Part shown: piece after piece, positions 35,204-51,588 of the stretch
How positions within the stretch are numbered: the first letter of the stretch is position 1
How the letters are laid out: the number at the start of each line of letters is the position of its first letter
Origin: Escherichia phage muut
Reading direction: 5' to 3' (one strand)
DNA length: 64,000 bases
Sequence record: NC_052657.1
Notes under the pieces: model-generated
The model's input: the letters and a program-made list of their open reading frames with translations, nothing else
The model's database searches: none
Told to the model about the DNA's origin: nothing
Program-made: the position numbers and the translations under genes

Positions 35204-35401
35204 ATGATGCTAGATCAACTGATCAATGCTCCTCGCGTAACAGTAAGTCCAAAAACATTTGCATCACTTTTAGAAGATGCTAGAGAGGTTTATAACTTTA
35301 CTGAAGAAGAGCTTCCTGTTCCTGTTAAAAAAGGTTCCAGATGGTTGTTTTATGAAGGTATTATTTTTACTGAAGGGAATAATTGGAAGGAGACTAAATG
35401 A
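35204..35401 (+). CDS. hypothetical protein (65 aa)
   Basis: Start reset to ATG 35204 (AAGGAGG RBS). Confidence 0.4.
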   Translation: MMLDQLINAPRVTVSPKTFASLLEDAREVYNFTEEELPVPVKKGSRWLFYEGIIFTEGNNWKETK

Positions 35402-36387
35402 AATACTTAGTAACAGGTGGTTTAGGCTTTATTGGAAGTGCGGTAGTTCGTTTCCTGGCTAAAAACACTAAGAATGATATTTACGTTATAGATAAATGGG
35501 GTTACGCTTCAGACCCTAGAAATTTATCAGAAACACCTAATGTAAAGTTTTGTCGTGTTGACTTGACAAATGCTCAGTTAACTGCTAAGATTGTGGCAGA
35601 TGTTAATCCAGATTATATAATGCATCTTGCAGCAGAAAGTCACGTAGATAATTCAATAGCATCACCGAGTGTTTTTATAAATTCAAATATTGTTGGAACA
35701 TTTAATCTTCTAGAAGCTGTTCGTTTAATGGGAGATAAATCAAATCTTAAAATGTTTCATCATATTTCAACAGATGAAGTGTATGGTGATCTGGAAGAAG
35801 GGGATTATCCGTTTACAGAACAGAATCCTTATAAGCCAAGTAGTCCATATGCTGCATCTAAGGCAGCAAGCGATCATTTGGTAAGAGCGTGGCATCGTAC
35901 TTATGGTATTCCGACAGTTATAACAAATTGTTCAAATAATTTTGGAGCGTATCATCATCCAGAAAAACTAATACCTAAAACGATAACAAATATTTTGATG
36001 CATAAACCAATCCCTGTTTATGGCAATGGTCTTCAAGTAAGAGATTGGTTATACGTTGACGATCACGCAGAAGCATTACACCTAGTAGTAACTAAAGGCA
36101 AATCTGGAGAAACATATAATATTGGGAGCAGAAACCCTAGAACTAATATTGATGTAATCTATATGATTTGTGATTATATGGATGCGGTGTATCCATCTGA
36201 AACAGATGCTTGTAGCCTCATTGAGATGGTTACAGATAGGCCTGGGCATGATTTAAGATATGAAGTGAATCCTTATAAGATTGAAAAGGAATTAGGGTGG
36301 AAAGCTAAAGGCACATTTGAAGAAAAACTTTATTCAACCATTGATTGGTATGTAGATAACAAAGAGTGGTGGGAAAATAAAGTTTAA
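35398..36387 (+). CDS. rmlB: dTDP-glucose 4,6-dehydratase
   Basis: GGLGFIGS Rossmann motif, [10 protein letters not shown] (YxxxK), [22 protein letters not shown]; collinear with E. coli RffG/RmlB. Confidence 0.9.
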
Positions 36388-36395
36388 GGAGGAGT

Positions 36396-37265
36396 ATGAA
36401 AGGTATTATCTTAGCAGGTGGTAGTGGAACAAGACTTTACCCAGTTACTAAAGGGGTTAGTAAACAACTATTACCAATTTACGATAAACCTATGATTTAT
36501 TATCCACTCTCTGTCCTAATGCTTTCTGGAATTAGGGAAATACTAATAATTACGACACCAGAAGATCAAATTAATTTTGTAAATCTTCTAGGTGATGGTT
36601 CTTCTTTTGGTATTTCCCTACAGTATGCAATACAGGACAACCCAAAAGGTTTAGCAGAAGCGTTTATTATTGGTGAGAGCTTTATTGGTGAAGATTCTGT
36701 AGCACTTGTTCTAGGTGATAATTTGTTCTTTGGTCAGAGTTTTGGTAGCATTTTAGATTCTGCTAAAGAACATATTGAAAAGAATGGTGGAGCTAATATT
36801 TTTGGGTATCACGTAAATGATCCTGAAAGATTTGGTGTTGTTGAGTTTGATTCTGAAGGTACAGTGGTAAGTATTGAAGAAAAACCAAAAGCACCAAAAA
36901 GCAATTATGCAATTACAGGCTTGTACTTTTACGATAATTCTGTTATACAGAAAGCTAAAAGCGTTAAACCTTCTGCTAGAGGGGAATTAGAGATCACAGA
37001 TATAAATGAGATGTACTGGAAAGAAAAGACTTTACGTGTCTGTAAACTAGGAAGAGGTTTCACTTGGCTGGATACAGGAACACATGAAAGTCTTATGGAA
37101 GCATCTCAATTTGTTCATGCAATAGAAAAGCAACAAGGTATGAAGGTTGCATGCCTGGAAGAGATTGCTTTTAAAAATGAATGGATTACTTTAGACTCTG
37201 TAAAAAGTTCTGGAGAGGTTTTAAGTAAAACAGACTACGGTAAGTATTTACTTAAATTAAAATAA
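36396..37265 (+). CDS. rmlA: glucose-1-phosphate thymidylyltransferase
   Basis: [17 protein letters not shown]...[17 protein letters not shown] nearly identical to RmlA N-terminus. Confidence 0.9.
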
Positions 37266-37277
37266 AGGGGGAATTAA

Positions 37278-37832
37278 ATGATTCAAGCAACAAAAATCGA
37301 AGATTTGTTGATCATTCAACCTGACGTTTACGGAGATGAACGTGGTTTTTTCTTAGAAAGTTTTAATCAGGCTTTATATGATCAATACATAGGTAAACAA
37401 AACTTTGTCCAAGATAACCATTCACGTTCTATTCGAGGAGTTCTACGTGGGCTTCATTTTCAAAAGAAAAACCCACAAGGGAAGTTAGTACGTTGTGTTC
37501 GTGGTGAAGTTTATGATGTTGCTGTAGATATTAGGGTTGATAGTCCAACATTTGGAGAATGGGTAGGTGTTCTCTTATCTGAAAAGAATAAAACACAATT
37601 TTGGATTCCTCCTGGTTTCGCTCATGGCTTTGTTGTGATTAGTGACATTGCTGATTTTGAATATAAATGTACAGAATATTACGATCCGACTTCAGAGTGT
37701 AGTCTTGCGTGGAATGATCCAGATATCAATATTGATTGGGGTTTTGATTTAATCTTTAATGATATTAATTTTAAACCTATCTTGTCACAAAAAGATCAGG
37801 AAGCCAAAACACTAAAGGAGATCATATTTTGA
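37278..37832 (+). CDS. rmlC: dTDP-4-dehydrorhamnose 3,5-epimerase
   Basis: YGDERGFFLESF and RGLHFQ cupin motifs typical of RmlC. Confidence 0.85.
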   Translation: MIQATKIEDLLIIQPDVYGDERGFFLESFNQALYDQYIGKQNFVQDNHSRSIRGVLRGLHFQKKNPQGKLVRCVRGEVYDVAVDIRVDSPTFGEWVGVLLSEKNKTQFWIPPGFAHGFVVISDIADFEYKCTEYYDPTSECSLAWNDPDINIDWGFDLIFNDINFKPILSQKDQEAKTLKEIIF

Positions 37833-38659
37833 CAAAATTTTTAATCTTTGGTTCAAAAGGTCAATTAGGACAATCTTTGGCAAAAGTTGCACCAGAAGAT
37901 GTTATTTTGATTGAAGCAAGTGATATAGACATTACCAACTTTAAAGATGTTATGAATAGTCTTGTACAGCACGTGCCTGATGTTGTTGTGAATTGTGCGG
38001 CTTACACGGCAGTAGATAAAGCTGAAGAAGATGTTAACACCTGTATAAATGTTAATGCATACGGTGCAACAAACATTGCCAAAGCATGTAATGATTTACT
38101 GATACAGTTTGTACATATTTCAACAGACTATGTTTTTGATGGGCATGTTGCTGGCACAGAAGATAGTAAAACAAACCCCTTGAACACCTACGGTTACAGT
38201 AAACAATTAGGTGAAACTTTAGTACAAACAGTTTGTCCTACAGCACTTATTATCAGAACAGCTTCTGTTTATAGTGAATTTGGACATAACTTTTTGAAAA
38301 CTATGTTGGAACGCTACAACGGTGGTCAAAAAGAATTTAATGTAGTATGTGATCATTTATCATGTCCTACTTATGCACCTGATCTTGCAGAAACAATTTT
38401 TAAACTTGTAAAAGATGGTGTAAATAGTAAAATTGTACACTATGCAGGTGCAGATTATATTTCTTGGTATGATTTTGCACGAAAGATATTTCTTGTTATA
38501 GATTTATCTGTTACAGTTAATCCTGTATCTGCTTCAACCTATAATTCCAAAGCAGTCAGACCAGCAACATCTTATTTAAAAACAGATCCTACTTTAAATC
38601 CGCGAAGTGTTGATAGCGGTATTGTAAGAACTTTAACTATACTTTTAAACAAGGAGTGA
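37829..38659 (+). CDS. rmlD: dTDP-4-dehydrorhamnose reductase
   Basis: N-terminal IFGSKGQLG Rossmann motif, STDYVFDG; completes rmlBACD order. Confidence 0.8.
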   Translation: MTKFLIFGSKGQLGQSLAKVAPEDVILIEASDIDITNFKDVMNSLVQHVPDVVVNCAAYTAVDKAEEDVNTCINVNAYGATNIAKACNDLLIQFVHISTDYVFDGHVAGTEDSKTNPLNTYGYSKQLGETLVQTVCPTALIIRTASVYSEFGHNFLKTMLERYNGGQKEFNVVCDHLSCPTYAPDLAETIFKLVKDGVNSKIVHYAGADYISWYDFARKIFLVIDLSVTVNPVSASTYNSKAVRPATSYLKTDPTLNPRSVDSGIVRTLTILLNKE

Positions 38660-39621: not shown

Positions 39622-40374
39622 ATGGGAAATAAAACCGCAAAGGCTCGTCGTCAATCAGCAGCCAATGATGACAAACGTGCCAGTCGTTATGCGGCTAAAG
39701 CAGTAGGAAATGATGATTACCGTCTTGATGAATTTACCCCTGTTGGGAATCAAGAAGCTATTGTAAGAAGCATGGTTTGGAATGATTTAACCATTGTTAA
39801 TGCCCCAGCAGGAACAGGAAAAACGACAACAGCACTATGGAAAGCATTGCAAATGCTTAAAGCTGGTGATTTCAGAAAGTTGATTTTCCTTAAAAACCCG
39901 ACAGAAGTAGGTGATGATCAAATTGGTTTCTTATCTGGAGATAAGACTGATAAACTAGCAGCACATTACGAATCAACTAAAAGAATTTTCCAACAGTTTA
40001 TGACTGCAAATAAATTGGAAAACGATATTGCAAGTGGCAAAATTGAACTTAATATTCCAAACTATGCACTAGGTGCTACGTGGGATAACAGCATTATTCT
40101 TATTGATGAAGTTCAACTTATGTCACCAAATACAGTAAAACTTCTCCTTGAGCGAGCAGGTCTTAATACACGTATTGTCATTATGGGTGATGTTAATCAA
40201 ACATATGCAATTAAACGAAGAGCTAATGGGTTAGGTGATTTGTTAGATCGTGTTGTTCCTATTAACGAAGAAGGAGAAAGGGAAGCTATTGTAGATTTTA
40301 TTGGTTATGTTGAAATGACAACTGCTGATAACCAACGTTCCCGTTTGTCTCAGTTCATCACGGAAGTATATTAA
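39622..40374 (+). CDS. phoH: PhoH-like ATPase
   Basis: Walker A NAPAGTGKTT and Walker B-like IILIDEVQ. Confidence 0.8.
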   Translation: MGNKTAKARRQSAANDDKRASRYAAKAVGNDDYRLDEFTPVGNQEAIVRSMVWNDLTIVNAPAGTGKTTTALWKALQMLKAGDFRKLIFLKNPTEVGDDQIGFLSGDKTDKLAAHYESTKRIFQQFMTANKLENDIASGKIELNIPNYALGATWDNSIILIDEVQLMSPNTVKLLLERAGLNTRIVIMGDVNQTYAIKRRANGLGDLLDRVVPINEEGEREAIVDFIGYVEMTTADNQRSRLSQFITEVY

Positions 40375-40410
40375 TAATTACAAGGCAAGGATGCCTGTTA
40401 TGGAGGTTAA

Positions 40411-40902
40411 ATGACGCTAATTGAGATTGATCGCAATGGTATTGATGAATGCTATCAAGCTGGCTTAGTTAAGCCGAATGAGTTTAGACAGATTTATATT
40501 GACAAGATTGAAAAAGAAATATCTCTTCGTTTAGAGAACATGGCAACTTTGCAAAAAGTTCAGATGTTTTTTAGTTGGTTGAAAGGAGAGGATTGGCTAA
40601 CTAAATATTACCAGGAATTATCTGATAGTCAAGAAGGCTTGTTTGAGTGTATAATAAATGTAGCTGGGTCTAATTCAGAGTTACTCCTGATTGATGAAGA
40701 AGATTCTAAACTTCTTTTTCTTAGCAGTATTTTTCACAAGAAATCTATGTTAGTAAGAAATTGCAGTGATTTACTAAATCATCCACTAACAAGAACTAAT
40801 AAAATTCTTGTGGATAAAGAAACACTAAGAGCTATTGATTACCTCCGTAAATATGTAAGCGGTGGTAAAGCAGTCCTTAAAACACTACAGGAGGAAGTAT
40901 AA
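40411..40902 (+). CDS. hypothetical protein (163 aa)
   Basis: Track ORF. Confidence 0.45.
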   Translation: MTLIEIDRNGIDECYQAGLVKPNEFRQIYIDKIEKEISLRLENMATLQKVQMFFSWLKGEDWLTKYYQELSDSQEGLFECIINVAGSNSELLLIDEEDSKLLFLSSIFHKKSMLVRNCSDLLNHPLTRTNKILVDKETLRAIDYLRKYVSGGKAVLKTLQEEV

Positions 40903-41555
40903 TGACAACAATTATTGCAACACGTAACAAAATTTTGTCTGACGGTAAGGTAACAGTAGGTAGTCGTGTAGACACTTTAAACTTCAAGAAAGTGCGTAAA
41001 ATTGGGGACTACCTTGTTGGTGGTGCAGGACGTCTGTCTTCTATCCTGACTTTCTTTTCTTGGTTTGAACAAAACTTACAATGCCAGGCAGCACAAGAGA
41101 CAATCCCAGGTTTGGTGATCCAGTCAGATCCCGATAAAGAAGATGAAGAGTTTGTGGCATTGGTTGTTCATCCAGACGGTAAAATTTATATGCACGAGGG
41201 TAATAATCCAACGCGAGCATATCCTTTAACTGAAGATTATTATGCTGTTGGTAGTGGGGCAGATTTTGCTTTAGCAGCTTTAGATGCAGGGGCAACTCCA
41301 GAAGAAGCGATGGAAGTTGCAAAACTGCGAGATGCTTTTTCCGGCGGTGAAACTTTTATCGAAGAGATCGAAGAACAACTGGAGTTAACAGCGGAAGATA
41401 TTCTGAACTTCAGCAAGGAGCAACTAATTAGTATGCTGTTGACTGGTGATCCTGATAGCGATGAAGCTGAAAGTATTTTAGCAGAAATGAAAGAATCACA
41501 AGAAAAAGTATTGACAGTCTCTGAAAAACTTGATAAAGTGTCCTCTGATAATTAA
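40902..41555 (+). CDS. HslV-like Ntn-hydrolase peptidase with acidic C-terminal extension
   Basis: N-terminus MTTIIATR (Thr2 nucleophile), KKVRKIGDYLVGGAGR and YAVGSGADFALAALDAG parallel E. coli HslV. Confidence 0.5.
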   Translation: MTTIIATRNKILSDGKVTVGSRVDTLNFKKVRKIGDYLVGGAGRLSSILTFFSWFEQNLQCQAAQETIPGLVIQSDPDKEDEEFVALVVHPDGKIYMHEGNNPTRAYPLTEDYYAVGSGADFALAALDAGATPEEAMEVAKLRDAFSGGETFIEEIEEQLELTAEDILNFSKEQLISMLLTGDPDSDEAESILAEMKESQEKVLTVSEKLDKVSSDN

Positions 41556-41564
41556 TCTAGTATA

Positions 41565-41585
41565 AACCCCCTCAAGGGGGTTATT
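41565..41585 (+). terminator. putative terminator hairpin
   Basis: AACCCCC-tcaa-GGGGGTT followed by ATTAGG; T-run weak. Confidence 0.4.
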
Positions 41586-41595
41586 AGGAGGAGAT

Positions 41596-42024
41596 ATGTT
41601 ACCAGTACCTGTAACCTTTGTAGAAAAAGCCTACTACTCTTTAGAACAAAACTGTAAAAGAGCTAAAAATTTTATTGAAAGTTTAGCAGAACAGCGTTAC
41701 ACTGTATCTAAAAAGGGATGGTTCAGAACTTCACAATATTCAGTCAACCCTTTCGGAGAAGTTCGTGTGTTGTACGGCAACACAGAAAATATCTTAGAAA
41801 GAATGTTAGAACTAGATAGGATCTCCTCCTGTGATTATCAACTGTTGAAATTTTACGATGTGTCAGAAAACATTAAAAACTTTCTTGACGATTTATGTAA
41901 ACGAAAAACAGAAGAAGATACAATACCAGTATCTATGGAAGAATTAACGTTCTTAAGAGATATTATGGTTTTTGAAGAAAACCCTGAAATCACAAAAGAG
42001 GAGATTTTAAGTAGTGGCAAATAA
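41596..42024 (+). CDS. hypothetical protein (142 aa)
   Basis: Track ORF. Confidence 0.45.
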   Translation: MLPVPVTFVEKAYYSLEQNCKRAKNFIESLAEQRYTVSKKGWFRTSQYSVNPFGEVRVLYGNTENILERMLELDRISSCDYQLLKFYDVSENIKNFLDDLCKRKTEEDTIPVSMEELTFLRDIMVFEENPEITKEEILSSGK

Positions 42025-42523
42025 GTATGATCGTCCACCAACTGATTACTATCCTACTCCACAAAAATGTATAAATGCATTATTTAGTGTAATAGATTTT
42101 AATAACCTTAAAGAAGAAGGTTTTATTTTTGCAGAACCGTGTAAAGGCGCTGCTGCTGCAATTTATCAACATTTTCCAGAAGGATCAGAATATTGTGAGT
42201 TAGAAGAAGGGAAGGATTATTTTAACCACGAATGGCATACTAAGCCGGATATTATAATCACAAATCCACCATTCAGACTTGCACTTGAGTTCTTGCAAAA
42301 GAGCTTAAAAGAAGCAGACGTTTGCATATACTTGTTGCGTCTTGGGTTCCTAGAGTCTATTAAACGAAGGGAATTCCATAAACAGAACCCACCAACAAAT
42401 TTGATTGTTCTTTCTGAACGACCATCTTTTGTTGCAGGTGGTACTGATAAGACAGCATATGCTTGGTACGTCTACGACCCAAAAAACAGGCTGGGTTTAA
42501 CTCAACCTTTCTATTTTGTTTAA
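42014..42523 (+). CDS. small phage-type N6-adenine DNA methyltransferase (tentative)
   Basis: YYPTP near N-terminus and catalytic IITNPPF motif; GTG start. Confidence 0.5.
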   Translation: MANKYDRPPTDYYPTPQKCINALFSVIDFNNLKEEGFIFAEPCKGAAAAIYQHFPEGSEYCELEEGKDYFNHEWHTKPDIIITNPPFRLALEFLQKSLKEADVCIYLLRLGFLESIKRREFHKQNPPTNLIVLSERPSFVAGGTDKTAYAWYVYDPKNRLGLTQPFYFV

Positions 42524-42767
42524 GAGGAGCATTTTTATGACCGAGAAATTTATTGTTACTATGGAACTCACCTTTGATGAAGAAGATTTTGATCTTCACG
42601 TATCAACTAAAGCAGATAACATTCACACGACACAGAGTGTTGCAATCGCTATGTTCTTTAAGCAAGCAATTGCAAAACAAGCTGAAGTGTGTGCTGGTTT
42701 AGCTGTAGAGTACGCAGAAGTTGTCAAGGTTCTTGAAAGTGCTCGCAACAACGATTGGGATGAATAA
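42516..42767 (+). CDS. hypothetical protein (83 aa)
   Basis: Track ORF. Confidence 0.4.
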   Translation: MFKRSIFMTEKFIVTMELTFDEEDFDLHVSTKADNIHTTQSVAIAMFFKQAIAKQAEVCAGLAVEYAEVVKVLESARNNDWDE

Positions 42768-42970
42768 TGGCATACAATTACTATCTGGTATATTTTAACG
42801 AAACTAAGAAAAAAGACACAGGAACTAATGTTTATGCGGAATCGGAAGAACACGCAAAAGCTATTGGTTCAGTGCTTCTTTCTAGAATAGCAGGTGAAGA
42901 AATTCCTGTAGAGGCTATCTTTGCAGAAGTTGACCCTGGTATTCAAGAAGATGATATTACCACTACTTAA
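42767..42970 (+). CDS. hypothetical protein (67 aa)
   Basis: Track ORF. Confidence 0.4.
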   Translation: MAYNYYLVYFNETKKKDTGTNVYAESEEHAKAIGSVLLSRIAGEEIPVEAIFAEVDPGIQEDDITTT

Positions 42971-42973
42971 CTG

Positions 42974-43002
42974 TTGACTTTAACATTGAGGTAGTGCATA
43001 CT
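42974..43002 (+). promoter_or_regulatory. sigma70-like promoter (TTGACT-17-CATACT) followed by hairpin
   Basis: Hairpin TCCTGT-aacaga-ACAGGA at 43003-43020, then GGAGGG RBS and ATG 43028. Confidence 0.5.
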
Positions 43003-43027
43003 TCCTGTAACAGAACAGGAGGGTATT

Positions 43028-43690
43028 ATGAAGTTTGTACTGTATCATCGACTTTCTAAGAAGAAACAACAAGGCAACCAGTATGGTATAGAATCACAGG
43101 AAGCAGATATCCAACGCTTCCTGGATTCACAAGAAAATTATACTATTGTAGGTAGCTTTGCAGAGTTTTATTCTGGTAAAGGCGATTGGAAGCAACGTAG
43201 AGAGCTTGTAAAAGCTGTTAATCTTTGCAAAGAAACAGGTGCTACACTTGTTGTTGCTAAGGTTGACCGTCTTGGACGTAACACAGCTTCTGTTGCAACC
43301 TTGTTAGAGATGATTAATGTACGGATAGCCACTATGCCCTCCGCTGAAAATATGATAATAAATATTTTAGCAGTTCTGGCAGAAGAAGAGGCTCGTGCAA
43401 TATCTGATCGTGTTAAGAAGAGCCTTAAGGTAGCAAAAGCGAAGGGAACGCTTCTTGGTGCAGCAAACCCTAAATACAAAAGAACAGATTATACGAAAAC
43501 GGAAGAAGCAAAACGCTCAAAAGAGTTTGCACTTTCTTTAAAAGATTCTTTAGTTGCATACAGAGCTTGTAAAACGCCATATATGACGATTGCAAAGCAT
43601 CTGAATGAATCAGGAAAGAGAACTATTCGTGGGAGTTTGTTCGATGCCAAAGCGGTACAACGTCTTTGTGCAAAATTGAATATTAAATAA
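43028..43690 (+). CDS. serine recombinase (resolvase/invertase family)
   Basis: N-terminal YHRLSKKKQ (catalytic Ser), VVAKVDRLGRN, C-terminal HTH-like region. Confidence 0.7.
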   Translation: MKFVLYHRLSKKKQQGNQYGIESQEADIQRFLDSQENYTIVGSFAEFYSGKGDWKQRRELVKAVNLCKETGATLVVAKVDRLGRNTASVATLLEMINVRIATMPSAENMIINILAVLAEEEARAISDRVKKSLKVAKAKGTLLGAANPKYKRTDYTKTEEAKRSKEFALSLKDSLVAYRACKTPYMTIAKHLNESGKRTIRGSLFDAKAVQRLCAKLNIK

Positions 43691-43699
43691 GGAGGAAAC

Positions 43700-43903
43700 A
43701 TGGCAGTTCAATCTTTTGAGGAGACTGTTAAAAAACAATTCCTATCGAAGCGAGCGATGGTTGAATTTTTGCATTTTCTCGAAGTAGATAGGGTACTTAT
43801 TGAGACTACACCAGATGGTAACTGGCAAGTCTCGTATATTGCCACCAGGCATATCGTAGACAGTACGAAAGAAGAAAATTCGGAAGTTACGGTTGCTAGT
43901 TAA
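43700..43903 (+). CDS. hypothetical protein (67 aa)
   Basis: Track ORF. Confidence 0.4.
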   Translation: MAVQSFEETVKKQFLSKRAMVEFLHFLEVDRVLIETTPDGNWQVSYIATRHIVDSTKEENSEVTVAS

Positions 43904-43914
43904 AGGAGTTAAAT

Positions 43915-44487
43915 ATGCGTTTAGCTTTTAACGGGAAGATAAGCACAGCAAACATATTGTCAGCAGTAGGATTATTAGGTAAAAAATTCACACCTTTCAG
44001 TTTACCAGTTTGTGTAGATTTTGATCATGTGTTTGATATTAATAATCCTTCACGTTGTATCGCCAGAAGTAATATTGATAACCCAAGTGAAAATCTGTTT
44101 TATATTACTAAACCATCCCAAGCAATTTTGAATCAATGGGAAGCAGGTCTGATTAAACCAGGTAAATATTTTGCATTACTACCTTGTAAATCATTGGCTA
44201 TAGAGGACAGTCTAAACTATGCAAACAATCTTGTTGTTACAGCATTCATTGTCTCAGAAAAAGAAGAAACTGCGGCACTTGCAAATACTGTTAAATCTTT
44301 GTATGATGCTTTGGGTGTTACTTACACTACCTTCGTTTGTGAAGATATTCCACATTGCGTTGAATTTGTGGTGAATGGTGTAACTGTATGTCGTGTAGAA
44401 ACAACTCAAGACGAAGACGTTTTTATTACTGTAGCCGATGTAATATCTGAACCTGTGTTTAGCTACGCAGTTTCATTAACACATTAA
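43915..44487 (+). CDS. hypothetical protein (190 aa)
   Basis: Track ORF. Confidence 0.45.
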   Translation: MRLAFNGKISTANILSAVGLLGKKFTPFSLPVCVDFDHVFDINNPSRCIARSNIDNPSENLFYITKPSQAILNQWEAGLIKPGKYFALLPCKSLAIEDSLNYANNLVVTAFIVSEKEETAALANTVKSLYDALGVTYTTFVCEDIPHCVEFVVNGVTVCRVETTQDEDVFITVADVISEPVFSYAVSLTH

Positions 44488-44497
44488 GGAGAAGGGG

Positions 44498-44824
44498 ATG
44501 AAAATAACGACAGAACAGGCTTTAATAGACAAAGGAAGGGAAATCTTAGAAAGTCATTTGGAGGATATTCAAAGGACTCCAGGGTATCTCGGCTGGCGTA
44601 TACAAGAAGCCGTCGATTTTCTACCCCGTAAAAATAAAGAGATTGAAGTAAGATCTCTATTCCTCCTTGTTAAAGTAGATGGTGACGCTATATACAAAGA
44701 TGTAGCGTCTCACATTGAACAAATAGAAGAAAAAGCCTACAAAGAATTTGCAGATCTTGTTGTAGAACATAATATAGAAGGTAAAGTTAATATCTTTATA
44801 CTTATGGATTTTGAGGAGAGTTGA
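44498..44824 (+). CDS. hypothetical protein (108 aa)
   Basis: Track ORF. Confidence 0.4.
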   Translation: MKITTEQALIDKGREILESHLEDIQRTPGYLGWRIQEAVDFLPRKNKEIEVRSLFLLVKVDGDAIYKDVASHIEQIEEKAYKEFADLVVEHNIEGKVNIFILMDFEES

Positions 44825-45567
44825 TGCTAGTATATCAAGAAATTAGTGTAAAAGATGATCAAGACCTGTTTATTATTGGTGATTTACATGGTTGCTTTGA
44901 TTTGTACCAGAAAGGTGTTAATACTTTAGGTATCCGAGATCAAGATGTTGTTGTATCTTTAGGAGATCTTACAGATCGCGGCAAGCAGAATTTTCGTTGT
45001 GTTGTTGAATTCACCAGAAAGCTAAATCGTTATGGTATTCGTGGAAACCATGAAGATATGATGATTAAAGGGTTGCTAGAAGGTGATAGACGATATTACG
45101 AATGTTGGTTTCAGAACGGAGGCCATACAGTTCTAGACGAGTGTGGAGAAGAGGGTGCAACTGCTCTTGCTTTGATGCTAGAAGATTTACCTGTTGTACT
45201 TGTTGTCAATTATCGTAATATGAAACTAGGCTTTATTCACGGTGGTTATCCTTCAGTTTTGGAACATTTACCAGTGACAGAAGTTTTGCCATTTTGTTTG
45301 AATATGAATAAAGAGCAAGTTTCTCGATTCACAGAATCTTTAATGTGGGATCGTGATATGATAGATTGCGCCCTTGAAGGGATTCTTCTTCCTAGAGTTT
45401 CAGGAGTAGATTATGTATTTCACGGGCATTCTTATGTTCCTAAACCTGTAATTAGCAGTAATAGGGTATATATGGATACAGGATCTTGCTTCAATGGTAA
45501 TTTAACCTTTGCATATTTTGATGATACAAATACGTTACAATTTTATTCTACTTTAGAGGAGGACTAA
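44821..45567 (+). CDS. Ser/Thr protein phosphatase (PPP-family metallophosphatase)
   Basis: GDLHG, GDLTDRG, RGNHE motifs. Confidence 0.75.
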   Translation: MMLVYQEISVKDDQDLFIIGDLHGCFDLYQKGVNTLGIRDQDVVVSLGDLTDRGKQNFRCVVEFTRKLNRYGIRGNHEDMMIKGLLEGDRRYYECWFQNGGHTVLDECGEEGATALALMLEDLPVVLVVNYRNMKLGFIHGGYPSVLEHLPVTEVLPFCLNMNKEQVSRFTESLMWDRDMIDCALEGILLPRVSGVDYVFHGHSYVPKPVISSNRVYMDTGSCFNGNLTFAYFDDTNTLQFYSTLEED

Positions 45568-45887
45568 TGTATAAAGTCACAATTAAAGAGACGGTAGGGA
45601 ATATTACGAAAGAAACTACTATTGAAACGGAAGACGTTGAGTTAGTCAAAGAGCTTTTATTTCCAAAATCAGAAATAAAAGATAATGACGAACAGTTGGA
45701 TGAAGATAACGATACAGCAAGGGATAAATGGAAGAAACAACTAGCGGAGATTTGGAAAAAGCCTCAAGTAACGCCTCCATTTGATCCTCGTACACCTTAT
45801 AGTCCTTGGGAAATTGGAAGCCCTTGGTTTACGTACCCTATTACTCCAATTGTTACTCCCAGTATTATTCCCAATATTACTTGTTAA
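45567..45887 (+). CDS. hypothetical protein (106 aa)
   Basis: Track ORF. Confidence 0.4.
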   Translation: MYKVTIKETVGNITKETTIETEDVELVKELLFPKSEIKDNDEQLDEDNDTARDKWKKQLAEIWKKPQVTPPFDPRTPYSPWEIGSPWFTYPITPIVTPSIIPNITC

Positions 45888-45897
45888 GGAGAAAACC

Positions 45898-46476
45898 ATG
45901 AGCGATTTATTCTACACAGGTGTTGGTAGTAGAGATATTACAGACGAAGAATGGGACACTATGGTAGCTGTTGCAAAATGGTTATCTACATGGTTCATTT
46001 TGCGATCTGGTAAAGCAGAAGGTGCAGATTCCGCATTTGAATGCGGGGTATATGATAGTGGAAACAATACAAAGAAAGAAATATACATTCCTTGGCCTTC
46101 GTTTAAAGGTAATGAGATAGATGGAGAGGTTATTGTTCTTGACAGACCAGATAGTGTAAACTATGCTCTAACCTTGCAATATGCAAAAGAATTGCATCCA
46201 GCTTGGGACAGATTATCTCAAGGTGCTAAAAAATTACATCAAAGAAATATCCACCAAGTTCTTGGAAGAGATCTTGAGAATCCAAAACCATCTTGTTTTC
46301 TTTTAGCTTGTGCAAATACAGATAAAAATGGAGATCCTTTAGGTGGTACAAGAACAGCTTGGATGTTGGCTAAAAAGTTTAATGTTCCTTGTTTTAATAT
46401 TCGAGGTAAAAGTAAAAAACAAATTTTCGAATTTATTAAGCCTATTTTAGAGGAGAATGGTCTTGTCCAGAAATAA
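45898..46476 (+). CDS. hypothetical protein, possible DprA/SLOG-like Rossmann domain
   Basis: Start reset to ATG 45898 (AAGGAG RBS); TGVGSRDI...SGKAEGADSAFECG loosely resembles DprA nucleotide-binding motif. Confidence 0.3.
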   Translation: MSDLFYTGVGSRDITDEEWDTMVAVAKWLSTWFILRSGKAEGADSAFECGVYDSGNNTKKEIYIPWPSFKGNEIDGEVIVLDRPDSVNYALTLQYAKELHPAWDRLSQGAKKLHQRNIHQVLGRDLENPKPSCFLLACANTDKNGDPLGGTRTAWMLAKKFNVPCFNIRGKSKKQIFEFIKPILEENGLVQK

Positions 46477-46981
46477 TATAAGCATCATTAAAGATAGCTT
46501 TATTGATGTAACAAACGATATTGTACCTACAATACAATATATAGTTGAGGCACAAGGTTTAAACTTTATACGTGATAAAGTTAAGATTGTTTTTCATAAC
46601 ACTCCAGGTTTTGTAACAGTAGGTTCAACAAAAACGCCGTGCTCTACAGATCTGATTACTTTAGACAAAAACTTAACACAAGAAGAAGTAGAAATTCTTA
46701 ACCTCTATTGGCTAGGTTTTAAAAGATATGAGGATACAGCTTTATCCCGAATGTCAACTATTTTAGCTAACATTCTAGTTCGGAAAATTTCTAAACTATG
46801 GGATGAAGAAAACCCAGATGAAATAGTTTTACACTTTGCTAAACCGGAAGACGGGGCATATGATATAGACACATCTGAAATGGCTTATGGGTTTATTATT
46901 TCTGGTAATGTATTACAGATGGAATCTTTATTGTATGTTGAGACAGTAAAACACAATAACAACTACGAGGAGGTTGTATGA
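46457..46981 (+). CDS. hypothetical protein (174 aa)
   Basis: Track ORF with GAGGAG RBS. Confidence 0.45.
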   Translation: MVLSRNNISIIKDSFIDVTNDIVPTIQYIVEAQGLNFIRDKVKIVFHNTPGFVTVGSTKTPCSTDLITLDKNLTQEEVEILNLYWLGFKRYEDTALSRMSTILANILVRKISKLWDEENPDEIVLHFAKPEDGAYDIDTSEMAYGFIISGNVLQMESLLYVETVKHNNNYEEVV

Positions 46982-47235
46982 AAGGTTTAGAGTTTAACTT
47001 TGTAGATGCGTGGGAAGGATGGGATGAACTAGGAGTAGGGGATTTATGTTTTTATGATGTTACCTTGAAGGAAGAATACAAACATCTAGCCCCTAGTGAA
47101 GATTGCGATGTGATTCTATCTATTCTATTAAGTCAGTCTATAGTGCAATTTGATTTTCTAAAAGGTAGTGAGTGTATTGAAAGTAAAGCATTCCGTTTAG
47201 AAGTTTCTCTTGGTGAAGAAGTTCCTGTAGAATAA
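46978..47235 (+). CDS. hypothetical protein (85 aa)
   Basis: Track ORF. Confidence 0.4.
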   Translation: MKGLEFNFVDAWEGWDELGVGDLCFYDVTLKEEYKHLAPSEDCDVILSILLSQSIVQFDFLKGSECIESKAFRLEVSLGEEVPVE

Positions 47236-47239
47236 TATA

Positions 47240-47263
47240 AACCCGCTTCAGCGGGTTTTTTGT
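47240..47263 (+). terminator. rho-independent terminator
   Basis: AACCCGC-ttca-GCGGGTT followed by TTTTTT. Confidence 0.7.
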
Positions 47264-47291
47264 TGACAACACCAGTTTTTTCGAATAAACT
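47263..47291 (+). promoter_or_regulatory. sigma70-like promoter (TTGACA-17-TAAACT)
   Basis: Immediately after terminator; precedes RBS and ATG 47321. Confidence 0.45.
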
Positions 47292-47320
47292 ACAGAAAAA
47301 CAGAAGAGGAGAAGATTAGC

Positions 47321-47731
47321 ATGTACTATAGTGACTATTTTGTAAACCCAACAAAAGAACAACTTCAATCAGCAGCGGATAAGATGCAGATTGTAGTTAA
47401 AGAATGTGAGAAAATAAGAAAACAACTACAAGAAGAGATTGTTGTTGTTAATAAATGGTTTGGTCTTAAGAAGAAAATTGTTAGTAAACACAATATCATC
47501 CTTGAAAAAGCAAAAACGACAGGAACTAGTTACGCCTTACAAGCCTTGTTACTAAATTACATTGATATAGAACAACATTCTCTTCTGCACTGTTGGCTTA
47601 ACAGCCCTAGTATTGAGAATCTCTTGTTCTGGTTATCGTGTGAATCTGTACTTTTAAATGAGAATGAGGCTTACCGTTTAAACTTCTGCCTCAAGGCAGA
47701 ATTACCAGCTAGTGTTAAGGAGAAGAAGTAA
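47321..47731 (+). CDS. hypothetical protein (136 aa)
   Basis: Track ORF. Confidence 0.45.
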   Translation: MYYSDYFVNPTKEQLQSAADKMQIVVKECEKIRKQLQEEIVVVNKWFGLKKKIVSKHNIILEKAKTTGTSYALQALLLNYIDIEQHSLLHCWLNSPSIENLLFWLSCESVLLNENEAYRLNFCLKAELPASVKEKK

Positions 47732-47733
47732 TA

Positions 47734-48723
47734 ATGAAAGTTTTAAGTCTTTTTGATGGTATGTCAGGAGGAATGCTTGCGCTAAAAAGTGCAGGTATTG
47801 AAGTAGATACATATTACGCTTCAGAATTAGACAAATTTGCCGTAGCTGAAAGCCAAGCAAATTTTCCAGATATTATTCAGTTAGGTGATGTTACAAAATG
47901 GAGAGAATGGGATATCCCGTGGGGAGAAATTGATCTTTTGTTAGGTGGTAGTCCGTGTCAAGGCTTCTCTTCTTCTGGTAAGGGTTTGAACTTTCAAGAT
48001 CCGCGATCTAAGTTATTCTTCGAATATGTTGAAATTCTTGAACATATTAAAAAGTTTAATCCTAATGTTAAGTTCATGCTTGAAAACGTTAAGATGAAAG
48101 TGGAGTGGGAAAACGTGATCACAAGTTACTTAGGTGTTGATCCCGTATTCATTAACTCCGCAGATTTCACGGCACAGAATAGACAACGTTTATACTGGTG
48201 CAACTGGGAAATAAAACCCTGGGAGATTACCAATGAAGTGTTGCAAGATATCATTGAAGATGATAGTATTGTAGACAGAGATAAGGCTTATTGCATAGAT
48301 GCAAATTATGCCAAAGGTGGTAATATAGAACAGTATTTTGAAAAGAGTCGCAGACAACTGGTTTTTTATCCGGCAGCAATATATGGGCGTAGAATTAATG
48401 AAAATGGCAAACGTAGTACATCTAAAACTGATCGTTTGGTACATTGTTTGGAAGTTCAGGACAGTGAAAAAACTCGTTGCCTCACGACTGTGCCTAAAGA
48501 CGTACTATTAGCCTACATTCCACCTGGAAGATATCTAGATGCTTTTGAAAAATTGAGTGAAGGCGTACATTATAGAAAGTTAACGGTTAAAGAGTGTTGC
48601 CGCTTGCAAGGTGTGCCAGATGATTACTTTAAAGTGAGTAGTAACACACAAGCATATAAGATGTTAGGTAACGGTTGGACTATACCTGTCATTGCACATA
48701 TTCTTAAATGTATGGAGGAATAG
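47734..48723 (+). CDS. dcm: DNA (cytosine-5)-methyltransferase
   Basis: Motif I LFDGMSGG, PC motif GGSPCQGFS, ENV motif (FMLENV). Confidence 0.8.
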   Translation: MKVLSLFDGMSGGMLALKSAGIEVDTYYASELDKFAVAESQANFPDIIQLGDVTKWREWDIPWGEIDLLLGGSPCQGFSSSGKGLNFQDPRSKLFFEYVEILEHIKKFNPNVKFMLENVKMKVEWENVITSYLGVDPVFINSADFTAQNRQRLYWCNWEIKPWEITNEVLQDIIEDDSIVDRDKAYCIDANYAKGGNIEQYFEKSRRQLVFYPAAIYGRRINENGKRSTSKTDRLVHCLEVQDSEKTRCLTTVPKDVLLAYIPPGRYLDAFEKLSEGVHYRKLTVKECCRLQGVPDDYFKVSSNTQAYKMLGNGWTIPVIAHILKCMEE

Positions 48724-48848
48724 TGGAAACATTGTGGAAAGGCTGGAAGACTGCTCTGATAGCCTTTATAATTCCATTAACTTTTCTTGGTTGGTGTTTT
48801 TGGGAATTTATCTTTTGGTTAATTTCCCATATACATTGGGGGTAATAT
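48723..48848 (+). CDS. small hydrophobic protein (41 aa)
   Basis: Sub-cutoff ORF, GTG start after GGAGG RBS; one TM helix. Confidence 0.3.
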
Positions 48849-49458
48849 GACTCAAAAAGTTGCATATCAAGTAGATCGTGAAGACGGTGAAGGTAGTGTT
48901 GTAGTTTTTGATACACATGGTCTTGCAGCAAGACGCAAAGGTGCTTGTCTACTGGACATTGGTGGTGAAGATGAATACTGCACTGTACGTAGAGTAAAAG
49001 AATTTGATCAATATGCTGAAAAAGGTTTTGTACCTGCAAAAGCACTATTAGAAGCTGGATGGTGGATACCTAGTGCACATGATTATGATATTTTGGAATC
49101 AGATACAGACGATTTTAACAGTGAAGATTTTGTTTTTTCTCTGGATGAAAAATGCGTTTGGAAAGATTGGGATGAAATGGAACGCCATGCTTATTTTATA
49201 AACGAAGCATTAGATCGTAAAACTTGGTTTGAGAATACAGTTAAAGCAGCGTATCCTCAATTTACTTTTACAGAATTTTGGGGTGGCCCACACCATATTA
49301 CTCATGTGGCATACTTCGAGTTCCCAGGCTCACGCTATAAAGGTACTGTCTATTGGGATTGGGACGAGGACAAAGAACCTTCTGCTCAAGACTTCCGTTG
49401 CTATGTTTGTCAAGGTGATCAAGAAGCCCTTGACAAGTACCTTAAAAGTCTGGTATAA
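48847..49458 (+). CDS. hypothetical protein (203 aa)
   Basis: Track ORF. Confidence 0.45.
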   Translation: MTQKVAYQVDREDGEGSVVVFDTHGLAARRKGACLLDIGGEDEYCTVRRVKEFDQYAEKGFVPAKALLEAGWWIPSAHDYDILESDTDDFNSEDFVFSLDEKCVWKDWDEMERHAYFINEALDRKTWFENTVKAAYPQFTFTEFWGGPHHITHVAYFEFPGSRYKGTVYWDWDEDKEPSAQDFRCYVCQGDQEALDKYLKSLV

Positions 49459-49459
49459 T
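49430..49459 (+). promoter_or_regulatory. consensus sigma70 promoter (TTGACA-18-TATAAT) overlapping stop of upstream gene
   Basis: Perfect hexamers; followed by hairpin 49477-49495, GGAGGA RBS and ATG 49513. Confidence 0.55.
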
Positions 49460-49476
49460 CCGTAAAACTTAACCAA

Positions 49477-49499
49477 AGCCCCAAGCAGGGGCTTTATTT
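49477..49499 (+). terminator. hairpin with T-run (terminator and/or 5-prime-UTR stem-loop)
   Basis: AAGCCCC-aagca-GGGGCTT followed by TATTTG. Confidence 0.45.
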
Positions 49500-49512
49500 G
49501 TCTGGAGGATAT

Positions 49513-50046
49513 ATGGGTTTTGATGACATGTTATTATATGAGGAGGCTTGTGTGAAAGAAGCTATGGCTTTACCAGTTTTATCTATTGATATTACAACAG
49601 TAGACACTTTTTCAGATTGTGAAACGTGTGGATCGTATTCGTCTATTGTACATGAAGTTAGTGGGGATTTAGGCACTTACGAAGATGGAGATTATGCAAG
49701 TTGTTTAGGTGATAATCGAGATGGTGAAGTGGCGAATGTTGCAAACTGGATTGCTTCTAAGTTAAAAGAAAGAAATCGTCCGTTCCCTAATCTTCTTACA
49801 CCAGAAGCTATGCTTAAAGCTGAACAAGAGATGTATGATTATGGTTATAAAGTAGATTATGACTATAATGATCCTAAATATAAAAAATTGAGTGACAAGT
49901 ATTGGGAACTAGCTAATGCTTATGATAAATACTACTCTACAGAAAACATTGTTAAATTGTTTTTAGATTTTGGAGTAGAAATTAATTGGGATTTCGAAGA
50001 GGAAGAGCGTTACGACGCATCTTCTTGGGAGGACGAGGGTGAATGA
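49513..50046 (+). CDS. hypothetical acidic protein
   Basis: Start reset to ATG 49513 (GGAGGA RBS). Confidence 0.4.
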   Translation: MGFDDMLLYEEACVKEAMALPVLSIDITTVDTFSDCETCGSYSSIVHEVSGDLGTYEDGDYASCLGDNRDGEVANVANWIASKLKERNRPFPNLLTPEAMLKAEQEMYDYGYKVDYDYNDPKYKKLSDKYWELANAYDKYYSTENIVKLFLDFGVEINWDFEEEERYDASSWEDEGE

Positions 50047-50783
50047 TAGAACGAAAACCCTTACCAGATAGAGATTACTTGTTATCAAGGTTTAGTGTGG
50101 AGAATGGTCGTCTTGTTTGGAAACCTAAACCTTCTACAACAAAAGAGAACAAAAGGTGGAATAGCAGATACGCAGGGAAGATTGCAGGGACTATTGATAA
50201 AGCTGGTTACTCTCATGTCAAAATAGATGGTATTGTATACTTGGAGCACAGAGTTTGTTTTAAAATGTATCATAATTACTGTCCAGATGTTATAGACCAT
50301 GATGACGGCAATAAACTTAATAATGCGGAAAGTAATTTATTGGATAGTAACTATTTATTAAATAATAACAATAGACACGTGGATGGGTTAGAAGGTATTT
50401 ATGAAAAGGATGGTGTTTTTCTTTGGGTTATAAACTACAACCAAGAAACTTTCTCTGTTTCAGGTTTCAAAACTAAAGAGGAAGCTATTGTAGCTAGAGC
50501 TTTAGCAAAACAAGAAATTTTGAAAGGATCTTATATCAAAAAAGAAAAGAAGCGTATAGATAACACTTCAGGATTAAGCTGTGTGTTTGTGGCAACAAGA
50601 GAGAGAACATTCTTTTTCAAGTTTGTGTTTGACAAGATCACGTATTGCAAATATGGTTTCAACGATCCAGAGAGATGTGCTATAGCTCTGGAGAAACTAA
50701 GATTGAAGGTGATGAAAGAAAAATATAAACCTGCAAATAAAAGCATTTGCGAAAAATATAAGGAGGAGATTTATGCCGCGTAG
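50043..50783 (+). CDS. HNH homing endonuclease with AP2-like DNA-binding domain
   Basis: HNH motif VIDHDDGNKLNNAESNL; downstream SGFKTKEEAIVARALA AP2-like segment. Confidence 0.65.
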   Translation: MIERKPLPDRDYLLSRFSVENGRLVWKPKPSTTKENKRWNSRYAGKIAGTIDKAGYSHVKIDGIVYLEHRVCFKMYHNYCPDVIDHDDGNKLNNAESNLLDSNYLLNNNNRHVDGLEGIYEKDGVFLWVINYNQETFSVSGFKTKEEAIVARALAKQEILKGSYIKKEKKRIDNTSGLSCVFVATRERTFFFKFVFDKITYCKYGFNDPERCAIALEKLRLKVMKEKYKPANKSICEKYKEEIYAA

Positions 50784-51588
50784 AGTCATATTCATAACTG
50801 GTGCAGGACTATCTGTGGATAGCGGTATCCCAGCTTTTAGAACAGATACTTCTTCAGGGAAGGCGTTATGGTCTTCTTATGATCTTTTTGAGGTCTGTGA
50901 CATTTTCAACTTCCGTGACGGTTATCAGCAAGAACAAGGTGTTCTTGATGCTATGGGTGGTTTAGATGCAGAAGGATATAACCTCTACCGTAAAACTCAC
51001 GACTTTTACAATAAACGTCGCGTGGAATTAGAGAAAGTTGACCCGAATCCAGCACATCTTCAGATTGGAGAATGGTTCAAAAAATATGGCCCAGAACGAA
51101 TTATTAACATTACTACTAACGTGGATGACCTCCTTGAACGAGCAGGAGTAGATAGGGAAGAAGTGCTACATGTGCACGGTTTTCTTCCTGAAATTACTTT
51201 TCAAAGAAAAGCTGGACAACCTACAATTGTAAAAGATGTTGGTTATCAAGCCATAGATGTAGATGACTACCATTATGTAAAACCTAATGTAATTTTCTTT
51301 GGGGAAGCTGCTCCACTTTACACGGATATGTATCATATTTTTGATACTTTGACCATGCAAGATTTGGTTGTTGTAGTAGGATGTTCAAACCAAGTTATCA
51401 ATTTTAATTGGGAATTATTCCCTGCACTTAATATGGGTACAAAAATGATCGTTGTTAACCCAGGAATTAATTACGAAGAAACTCTTCTTTACGAAGACAG
51501 AGGAGTTTTTGTTTATCGAGAAAAGGCCGCAGATGCTTTTAGCAATCCTGCTTTCATAAAAATGATAGAAGATCATTTGACTAAGTAA
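50773..51588 (+). CDS. Sir2-family NAD-dependent deacylase / ADP-ribosyltransferase
   Basis: NAD-binding signature GAGLSVDSGIPAFR near N-terminus; 271 aa. Confidence 0.7.
   Translation: MPRRVIFITGAGLSVDSGIPAFRTDTSSGKALWSSYDLFEVCDIFNFRDGYQQEQGVLDAMGGLDAEGYNLYRKTHDFYNKRRVELEKVDPNPAHLQIGEWFKKYGPERIINITTNVDDLLERAGVDREEVLHVHGFLPEITFQRKAGQPTIVKDVGYQAIDVDDYHYVKPNVIFFGEAAPLYTDMYHIFDTLTMQDLVVVVGCSNQVINFNWELFPALNMGTKMIVVNPGINYEETLLYEDRGVFVYREKAADAFSNPAFIKMIEDHLTK

Follow-up and report, generated by a model that had tools for sequence, protein, structure and literature searches.

Predicted cytosine and adenine DNA methyltransferases of the phi92-like phage muut: solitary genes with a probably limited role against restriction

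Introduction

Solitary DNA methyltransferases (MTases) are commonplace in phages. Here we analyze two such genes, one for a C5-cytosine MTase (47734-48723) and one for a small amino-MTase (42014-42523), in a stretch of 64,000 nucleotides from the genome of Escherichia phage muut (NC_052657.1); this stretch is hereinafter called the window, and coordinates refer to it unless another record is named.

The closest described counterparts of the first protein are M.HhaI and M.HaeIII (327-330 amino acids, aa) and the solitary phage enzymes of the PF00145 family. At 329 aa, the C5 MTase of the window is similar in size to these enzymes and displays all the hallmarks of their ten motifs. The Dcm protein of E. 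coli (target CCWGG) belongs to the same superfamily and employs the same chemistry, but the window protein scores far below the cutoff for the Dcm subfamily. The counterparts of the second protein are gamma-class enzymes, namely M.TaqI, CamA, M.BseCI and HsdM, with which it shares the motif order X-I-IV and the Rossmann core. These enzymes, however, are roughly 400-550 aa long, whereas the small MTase has only 169 aa; furthermore, TaqI and CamA possess a C-terminal target-recognition domain that the small MTase lacks, and no HsdS-like specificity partner is encoded nearby. Among mobile elements, solitary adenine DNA MTases have been described as an anti-restriction device, the examples being Hia5, Hin1523 and Nme1821 (PMC3299994). 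The enzymes of the Hia5 group are alpha-class, Dam-like proteins of 281 aa with a DPPY motif and a divergent recognition region (PMC3299994), in contrast to the gamma-ordered, NPPF-containing small MTase, and so belong to another family. This group was considered as a precedent for an MTase devoid of a recognition domain and was dropped because its members are 281-aa Dam-like enzymes (PMC3299994).

Two methyltransferase genes in a phi92-like genome

The two genes under study are the following.

47734-48723, + strand: C5-cytosine DNA MTase, 329 aa (phi92 gp043, bas61_0190), recognized by PF00145, TIGR00675, relatives in the PDB and motifs

42014-42523, + strand: minimal gamma-type amino-MTase, putative N6-adenine DNA MTase, 169 aa (phi92 gp056, bas61_0203), with a GTG start

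With moderate confidence, we interpret them as two of the three solitary DNA MTase genes of a lytic phi92-like myovirus, whose products would methylate DNA at specific sites and confer partial protection, without acting as a general anti-restriction system. Both open reading frames (ORFs) are found on the + strand at exactly the coordinates given by the first-pass annotation of this DNA, and a motif screen of the 64-kb window, covering all its 121 ORFs with 80 aa or more, detected the MTase signatures in these two only. Along its entire length, the region 41500-49500 shares 98-99% identity with over 50 GenBank genomes classified as Justusliebigvirus (Stephanstirmvirinae), including phi92, EmilieFrey/Bas61 (BASEL), Paula and BME3, and the conservation of each of the two genes reaches 98-100% in over 50 phage genomes. 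Given this conservation and the profile and family matches described below, neither ORF can be a chance occurrence. The genes have also been annotated in these near-identical genomes. The Bas61 record carries the labels ‘putative N6 adenine methyltransferase’ (bas61_0203) and ‘Dcm-like C5 cytosine methyltransferase’ (bas61_0190), and the phi92 record describes gp043 as a ‘putative site-specific DNA-methylase’ and supplies similarity notes only for gp056. The observation that the phage encodes two MTases is therefore accurate but ordinary and already known from existing annotation, so that, as stated, it adds little.

The C5-cytosine methyltransferase

In all likelihood, the protein encoded at 47734-48723 is a functional DNA cytosine-5 methyltransferase, as judged by the extent and conservation of its motifs. 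It matches PF00145 with E=1.7e-43 (149.8 bits, cutoff 22), residues 1-327 aligning with positions 1-322 of the 324-position profile, and TIGR00675 of NCBIfam with 142 bits (cutoff 100.65). The protein contains the SAM-binding motif I (LSLFDGMSGG) and motifs IV (GGSPCQGFS, with the nucleophile Cys75), VI (ENV), VIII (QNRQRLYW), IX (YRKLTVKECCRLQGVP) and X (LGNGWT). In its alignment with 25 homologues of 58-85% identity, F7-G9, P74-C75, E117-N118-V119, R150/R152, motif IX and G312-N313 are invariant. The first-pass assignment to the C5-cytosine MTases, made on the strength of PC and ENV motifs, is thus borne out by PCQ at residues 74-76, ENV at residues 117-119 and the full-length PF00145 match. 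The closest solved structures are the catalytic domains of DNMT3A/B, M.HhaI and M.HaeIII (~1e-23 to 1e-22 in the PDB search). A special kinship with DNMT3 was rejected because, although DNMT3A/B come first in the PDB list, their E-values are indistinguishable from those of HhaI and HaeIII.

By the mechanism common to the family, the target cytosine would leave the helix by base flipping, its C6 would be attacked by Cys75 (Pro-Cys motif), and C5 would receive the methyl group of S-adenosylmethionine. The target is expected to be set by the variable region between motifs VIII and IX, which comprises ~115 aa (about residues 160-278). In the PDB comparison no similarity between this region and a solved enzyme was detected, and among the aligned homologues it is modular, as blocks are found in some, missing from others or inserted. 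In one GenBank record the gene bears the label ‘modification methylase SPRI’; the multispecific phage C5 MTases of the SPR/phi3T type have several target-recognition modules in tandem between motifs VIII and IX.

At 95% identity or higher, the C5 MTase occurs in 53 phage records, all of them phi92-like, and no further relative exceeds 52% identity; the closest phage relatives beyond the genus, at ~50% identity, are found in Vibrio phages, including ICP1, and in jumbo coliphages. By this distribution across sequence records, the enzyme is specific to the phi92-like genus.

The small amino-methyltransferase

The 169-aa protein is read here as a gamma-type amino-MTase core that probably acts on adenine in DNA. 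It contains motif X (YPTP), motif I (EPCKG), the acidic residue E62 and motif IV (NPPF, residues 84-87), and matches phrog_799 of PHROGs with an E-value of 1.7e-56. The family as a whole conserves YPTP near the N-terminus, EPCxG, the acidic residue 62, D-x-IITNPPF and RPSF; across 44 homologues, E41, P42, N84, P85, P86, R136 and P137 are invariant, and the gamma-class motif set (T15/P16, E41-P42-x-x-G45, N84-P85-P86-F87) is conserved in the family. The AlphaFold2 model (predicted local distance difference test, pLDDT, 90.7; predicted TM-score, pTM, 0.87) adopts the class I Rossmann methyltransferase fold, and a Foldseek search with this model retrieves CamA, M.TaqI and HsdM first (E ~2-4e-4, query TM-score, TMq, 0.5-0.55), along with M.BseCI. 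When compared with the PDB, the family profile is collinear with HsdM of StySJI through YxTP, (D/E)PxxG and NPPF, at a marginal E=0.0098. The sub-threshold Pfam matches across the 44 members (EcoRI_methylase in 40/44, MTS in 22, N6_Mtase in 13, Dam in 13 and Eco57I in 10) are mostly to DNA adenine MTase families; the top match, to EcoRI_methylase, reaches 13.4 bits against a cutoff of 26.4, and the matches are short and centred on NPPF. The description of the protein in the first-pass annotation holds for the NPPF motif and probably for the identity as an MTase, whereas the label ‘N6-adenine’ is a reading of motifs and fold only.

Further attempts to connect the family with curated enzymes were made. 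The gathering scores of PF02384, PF07669 and PF13651 are not reached by the small MTase, a single-sequence search of the PDB detected no relative, and the long and fused members of the family provided no link to a curated family. A homology bridge through the ‘DNA methyltransferases’ of Vibrio phage nt-1 and phiCD211 was discarded when these proved to be similar proteins of 190-200 aa.

The family is uniform and consists of stand-alone proteins of 160-220 aa; one search grouped them into 237 clusters (90% identity), while a profile search yielded 13,941 (50% identity), and no member carries a curated domain. The existence of so large a family of ~170-aa MTases that has no recognition domain and is uncharacterized is of some interest in itself. 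In phages, the gene is present in 493 records across the rV5/phAPEC8/PVP-SE1/phi92 superfamily, of which, by this count of records, it is a core gene; in a distant contig of temperate type, it is located in the early region near a C5 DNA MTase gene and HNH genes. The most likely product of the enzyme would be N6-methyladenine (m6A) in DNA, in which case a short or relaxed motif may be read by the catalytic core itself or together with a partner.

The start of the gene is embedded in the end of another ORF.

41596-42024, + strand: ORF of 142 aa (phrog_15078) with no assigned function, the end of which overlaps the start of the small MTase by 11 nucleotides (nt)

41999-42004, + strand: Shine-Dalgarno sequence GAGGAG, 9 nt before the GTG of the small MTase and within the end of the upstream ORF; annotated in phi92 too

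The 142-aa ORF is absent in rV5-like phages and thus is no conserved partner of the small MTase; indeed, neither among the distant homologues nor in the rV5-like phages was a conserved partner gene found, the neighbourhoods being different.

In some homologues (for example P0057, P0061, P0094 and P0106), RPSF and the last strands are separated by an insert of 20-30 residues whose CxxC...CxC pattern resembles a zinc ribbon and which the window protein does not have. This insert could be a rudimentary nucleic-acid-binding element.

A third methyltransferase and the solitary status of the genes

The genome of phi92 encodes another MTase in a part that the window does not reach.

NC_023693.1, 93406-94137, - strand: phi92 gp155, beta-class N6/N4 DNA MTase, 243 aa (PF01555, E=3.4e-30)

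In this protein DPPY is located close to the N-terminus and FSGSATT close to the C-terminus, and its gene lies ~30 kb outside the portion of the genome to which the window corresponds. It is represented in 54 phi92-like records at 95% identity or higher, whereas the next relatives are at most 43% identical, so that it too is genus-specific. Together with the small MTase and the C5 MTase, gp155 brings the complement of the phi92-like phage type to at least three MTase genes, and the BME3 paper mentions four methyltransferase coding sequences. The earlier count of two is correct in that both genes are present, but it is an undercount for the phage.

The absence of cognate restriction enzymes, also part of the first-pass annotation, agrees with our searches: no recognizable nuclease adjoins either gene, and the ORFs neighbouring the MTases match no nuclease family in Pfam, PHROGs, NCBIfam or PADLOC. 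The curated annotation of Bas61 lists no restriction endonuclease across 50 kb. The two larger ORFs that flank the C5 gene in its cassette (136 aa and 203 aa, see below) have neither sequence relatives in the PDB nor a family match, the 136-aa protein having been examined by sequence only. A hidden nuclease in this cassette was considered and rejected, as the model of the 203-aa protein (pLDDT 82.8, fair) yields no fold match (best E=0.16). Within the reach of sequence and fold searches, the solitary (orphan) status of both MTases is supported. The only HNH gene near the MTases is a sporadic insertion of the homing type.

This HNH endonuclease gene (phrog_99, 3e-34; HNH_3 of Pfam just under the cutoff) occupies 50043-50783 on the + strand, between genes for aminoacyl-tRNA-synthetase-like and Sir2-like proteins. 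It is absent in phi92 and Bas61 and is found in 7/58 matching records, including three Phapecoctavirus genomes at ~98% nucleotide identity; such sporadic occurrence across genera is indicative of a mobile, homing-type element.

Restriction sensitivity and site avoidance

The protection against host restriction put forward in the first-pass annotation had been extrapolated from other phages, and the plating of close relatives on common systems points the opposite way. Bas61 and Bas62 are ~98-99% identical to the window in this region and carry both MTase genes. A series of observations weighs against the interpretation of these genes as protective DNA MTases. In the BASEL raw data, ~2.5e7 plaque-forming units of Bas61 and Bas62 did not give a single plaque on hosts with EcoRI, EcoRV or EcoP1I, and their plating is reduced about 10-fold on EcoKI. 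All four of these systems are m6A-based, so that the adenine enzyme or enzymes of the phages leave the respective sites uncovered. BREX lowers the titers of phiPau and phiPATM by ~7 logs (Durham study), the phi92-like identity of these phages (Paula, vB_Eco_PATM) being assumed from their names. The same phages were not found to be sensitive to BrxU, an enzyme that cuts 5-methylcytosine (5mC) DNA in vitro (Durham study), and accordingly there is no positive sign of dense 5mC. No methylome or digestion data for phi92-like phages were found in the searchable literature. Nor is there any cytosine motif that is avoided in phAPEC8 yet relaxed in the window, so that the target of the C5 enzyme is not deducible from site counts. 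As for the small MTase, no curated Pfam or NCBIfam model scores above threshold (Pfam at E<=10, 44 members); RNA m6A enzymes (KsgA/Dim1/Erm, METTL5, TrmM, PH1948) follow close behind the DNA enzymes in the Foldseek search (~6e-4 to 1e-3); and in the alignment and the AlphaFold2 model the protein ends ~30 residues past the last core strands, with no target-recognition domain.

On the two CFT073 systems included in the BASEL raw data, the effect on Bas61 and Bas62 is at most ~20-fold. The total restriction of both phages by EcoRI, EcoRV and EcoP1I is incompatible with near-global adenine methylation. As published tests show close relatives to be open to restriction by common systems, an anti-restriction role cannot be taken as proven; it is plausible in a narrow, site-specific sense only and is contradicted for the common systems that were tested. 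At best, it is possible that the MTases cover a few other restriction specificities. These plating data have a corrective value inasmuch as they contradict the broad anti-restriction benefit that is routinely claimed in genome papers, and the coexistence of three MTases with marked sensitivity to restriction is mildly interesting. Furthermore, the genus is one of broad host range that includes candidates for phage therapy, and knowledge of the systems neutralized by the three MTases would aid the prediction of host range.

Palindrome statistics, computed for positions 1-64000 of the window and, for comparison, positions 1-50000 of phAPEC8, suggest another means of evasion. Avoidance in the window is extreme: of the 64 six-base palindromes, 24 are wholly absent, among them AAGCTT (0 against 23.7 expected), CTGCAG (0 against 13.3), AGTACT (0 against 9.3), CAGCTG and GGATCC. 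Four-base sites are depleted as well: GGCC and CATG reach 0.42 and 0.52 of the expected number, respectively, and GGCC, CATG and CCGG all fall within 0.4-0.6. GATC, GATATC, GAATTC, GCGC and CCWGG are not avoided, and the window retains 16 GAATTC and 27 GATATC sites. Part of the avoidance is lineage-specific, as seen in the counts for the window versus phAPEC8 (AAGCTT 0/47, GGWCC 0/18, GGYRCC 0/17, GGTACC 0/7), although these striking differences do not indicate a target for the C5 enzyme. The retention of GAATTC and GATATC while many palindromes have vanished suggests that site avoidance, and not methylation, is the principal way in which six-cutter type II enzymes are evaded; it looks as though avoidance is the main counter-measure against type II enzymes. 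Under the interpretation that we favor, both enzymes would methylate the replicating phage DNA at specific sites and so shield it from some nucleases only, namely those with coinciding sites, with the phage relying heavily on palindrome avoidance.

The C5 cassette and its counterpart in phAPEC8

The C5 gene belongs to a compact cassette with the following features.

47239-47258, no strand assigned: GC-rich hairpin with a T-run, terminator-like (intrinsic) on both strands, which ends the upstream unit and precedes the cassette

47263-47291, + strand: candidate sigma-70-like promoter, TTGACA-17-TAAACT, a consensus match only

47321-47731, + strand: ORF of 136 aa, the first gene of the cassette (phrog_16551), homologue of phAPEC8 gp193

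48708-48845, + strand: small hydrophobic ORF (41-45 aa) that follows the C5 MTase and precedes the 203-aa ORF, hypothetical in phi92 and Bas61

48847-49458, + strand: ORF of 203 aa, the final gene of the cassette (phrog_8514), homologue of phAPEC8 gp195

49475-49495, no strand assigned: GC-rich hairpin with a T-run, terminator-like on both strands, which ends the cassette

The C5 gene would accordingly be transcribed in a small unit that extends from the promoter-like site to the terminator hairpin. The 136-aa protein is 23% identical to phAPEC8 gp193 (E=3e-12), and the 203-aa protein is 68% identical to gp195, although the MTase encoded between them differs. In phAPEC8, the slot between these homologous flanking genes is occupied by gp194, a minimal C5-like MTase of 227 aa (phrog_757) with FDGSG, FPPC and ENP motifs, which is presumably the functional counterpart of the C5 MTase but shows no PF00145 match and aligns only faintly with it (26% identity, E=0.13). 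Enzymes of the gp194 type are present in 1,488 phage records, including those of Phapecoctavirus, rV5-like phages and Drexlerviridae, and were not found in the window. As the synteny and the sequence comparison indicate, the phi92-like genus has swapped one C5-type enzyme for a non-orthologous one in the same slot. It is mildly interesting that C5 enzymes which are not orthologous have been exchanged in place while the cassette around them is conserved, and the retention of a C5-type enzyme through gene replacement suggests that the pairing of an A-type with a C-type enzyme is under selection.

The last codons of the 203-aa ORF contain a sequence that matches the sigma-70 consensus perfectly (TTGACA-18-TATAAT, preceded by TG), and the strong terminator-like hairpin comes only 16 nt after it, an unusual order of promoter and hairpin (49430-49495 for the two together, + strand). 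The hairpin at 49475-49495 may be a structure of a 5′ leader rather than a terminator.

Alternative explanations

Different substrates for the two enzymes have to be considered. For the 169-aa protein, a role as a minimal RNA MTase (rRNA or tRNA m6A or N2-methylguanosine, m2G) or protein amino-MTase that modifies the translation apparatus of the host, with the C5 enzyme alone acting on DNA, is unlikely but deserves to be taken seriously. In the fold search, the scores of KsgA/Dim1/Erm, PH1948, TrmM and METTL5 differ from those of the DNA enzymes by no more than ~5-fold; among the sub-threshold Pfam matches, the generic small-MTase domain MTS ranks second in frequency (22/44); the protein has no target-recognition domain; the gene cluster and the relatives are rich in aminoacyl-tRNA-synthetase-like proteins, RNA ligase, polynucleotide kinase and RtcB; and the phages are sensitive to every m6A-based restriction system that was tried. 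However, the best fold matches are DNA enzymes, the YxTP motif X, (D/E)PxxG and NPPF are collinear with those of type I HsdM, and most of the sub-threshold matches are to EcoRI_methylase, N6_Mtase, Dam and Eco57I; the proximity of the gene to C5 DNA MTase and HNH genes in the distant temperate-type contig and the Cys-rich, zinc-ribbon-like insert of some members likewise favor DNA. The C5 enzyme, for its part, might be a mere equivalent of Dcm that methylates CCWGG and protects from EcoRII-type enzymes, in keeping with the ‘Dcm-like’ label of Bas61 in BASEL and GenBank and with the counts of CCWGG in the window, where this site is not avoided (71 observed, 76 expected) while CCSGG is scarce (3 observed, 5 expected). 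We regard this identity as improbable, the faintest of the alternatives, given that the model of the E. coli Dcm subfamily (NF007772/PRK10458) gives 30 bits against a cutoff of 710 and aligns with residues 280-328 only, that the Dcm-type PDB chains 3lx6 and 3me5 reach the C-terminal motifs only, at ~1e-6 versus 1e-23 for DNMT3, HhaI and HaeIII, and that phAPEC8, which lacks this C5 enzyme, does not avoid CCWGG either (ratio 0.96). By these sequence scores, the ‘Dcm-like’ label is unsupported.

The purpose of methylation could also differ from protection. Dam methylation times the packaging of phage P1, and the MTases of the window might similarly serve the biology of the phage itself, either by labelling phage DNA as self while nucleases encoded by the phage degrade the DNA of the host, or through the timing of replication, packaging or transcription. 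The phages do not visibly benefit against six restriction systems or against BREX, yet a pair of A-type and C-type enzymes is kept across the superfamily; both genes reside in a co-directional cluster for replication, recombination and nucleotide metabolism, and the C5 gene is flanked, within one transcription unit, by two conserved genes of unassigned function. Such an internal role nevertheless seems rather unlikely: the cassette partners contain no nuclease or methyl-reader domain (by sequence search, and by fold for the 203-aa protein only), and the C5 slot accepts non-orthologous enzymes with targets that are probably different, a turnover that fits an arms race better than a fixed regulatory site. 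Doubtful to a still greater degree is a scenario in which the ~170-aa family works unlike the classical DNA MTases, through relaxed or short targets, a specificity factor supplied in trans or an RNA substrate, or in which the three-gene cassette reads or exploits cytosine methylation. Compared with all these options, site-specific methylation of phage DNA with partial protection appears to be the preferable explanation.

Neighbouring genes and related records

Between the two MTase genes, at 43028-43690 on the + strand, lies a gene for a serine recombinase of the resolvase/invertase family (PF00239, 8.4e-22), in a phage that is strictly lytic. Upstream of both, at 35398-38659 (+ strand), a four-gene pathway for a sugar nucleotide of the dTDP-rhamnose type (dehydratase, thymidylyltransferase, epimerase and reductase) is encoded, as annotated also in Bas61 and phAPEC8. 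The BASEL paper describes it as a putative dTDP glycosylation machinery that evidently provides no protection from restriction.

The neighbours of the MTase genes at 39622-41555, 43915-44487, 49498-50046 and 50773-51588, all on the + strand, are unusual accessory genes, and all are conserved in phAPEC8. The accessory set comprises a PhoH-like ATPase, an HslV/proteasome-like peptidase, two fragments resembling aminoacyl-tRNA synthetases, a NinI-type phosphatase, a DprA-like protein and a Sir2-like protein.

Finally, proteins 99% identical to those of phi92-like phages are present in the record MG065645.1, ‘Campylobacter phage A145’, and in related records of Campylobacter jejuni phages, while others of these records match rV5-like phages. 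It looks as though these Campylobacter phage records are mislabelled or contaminated.

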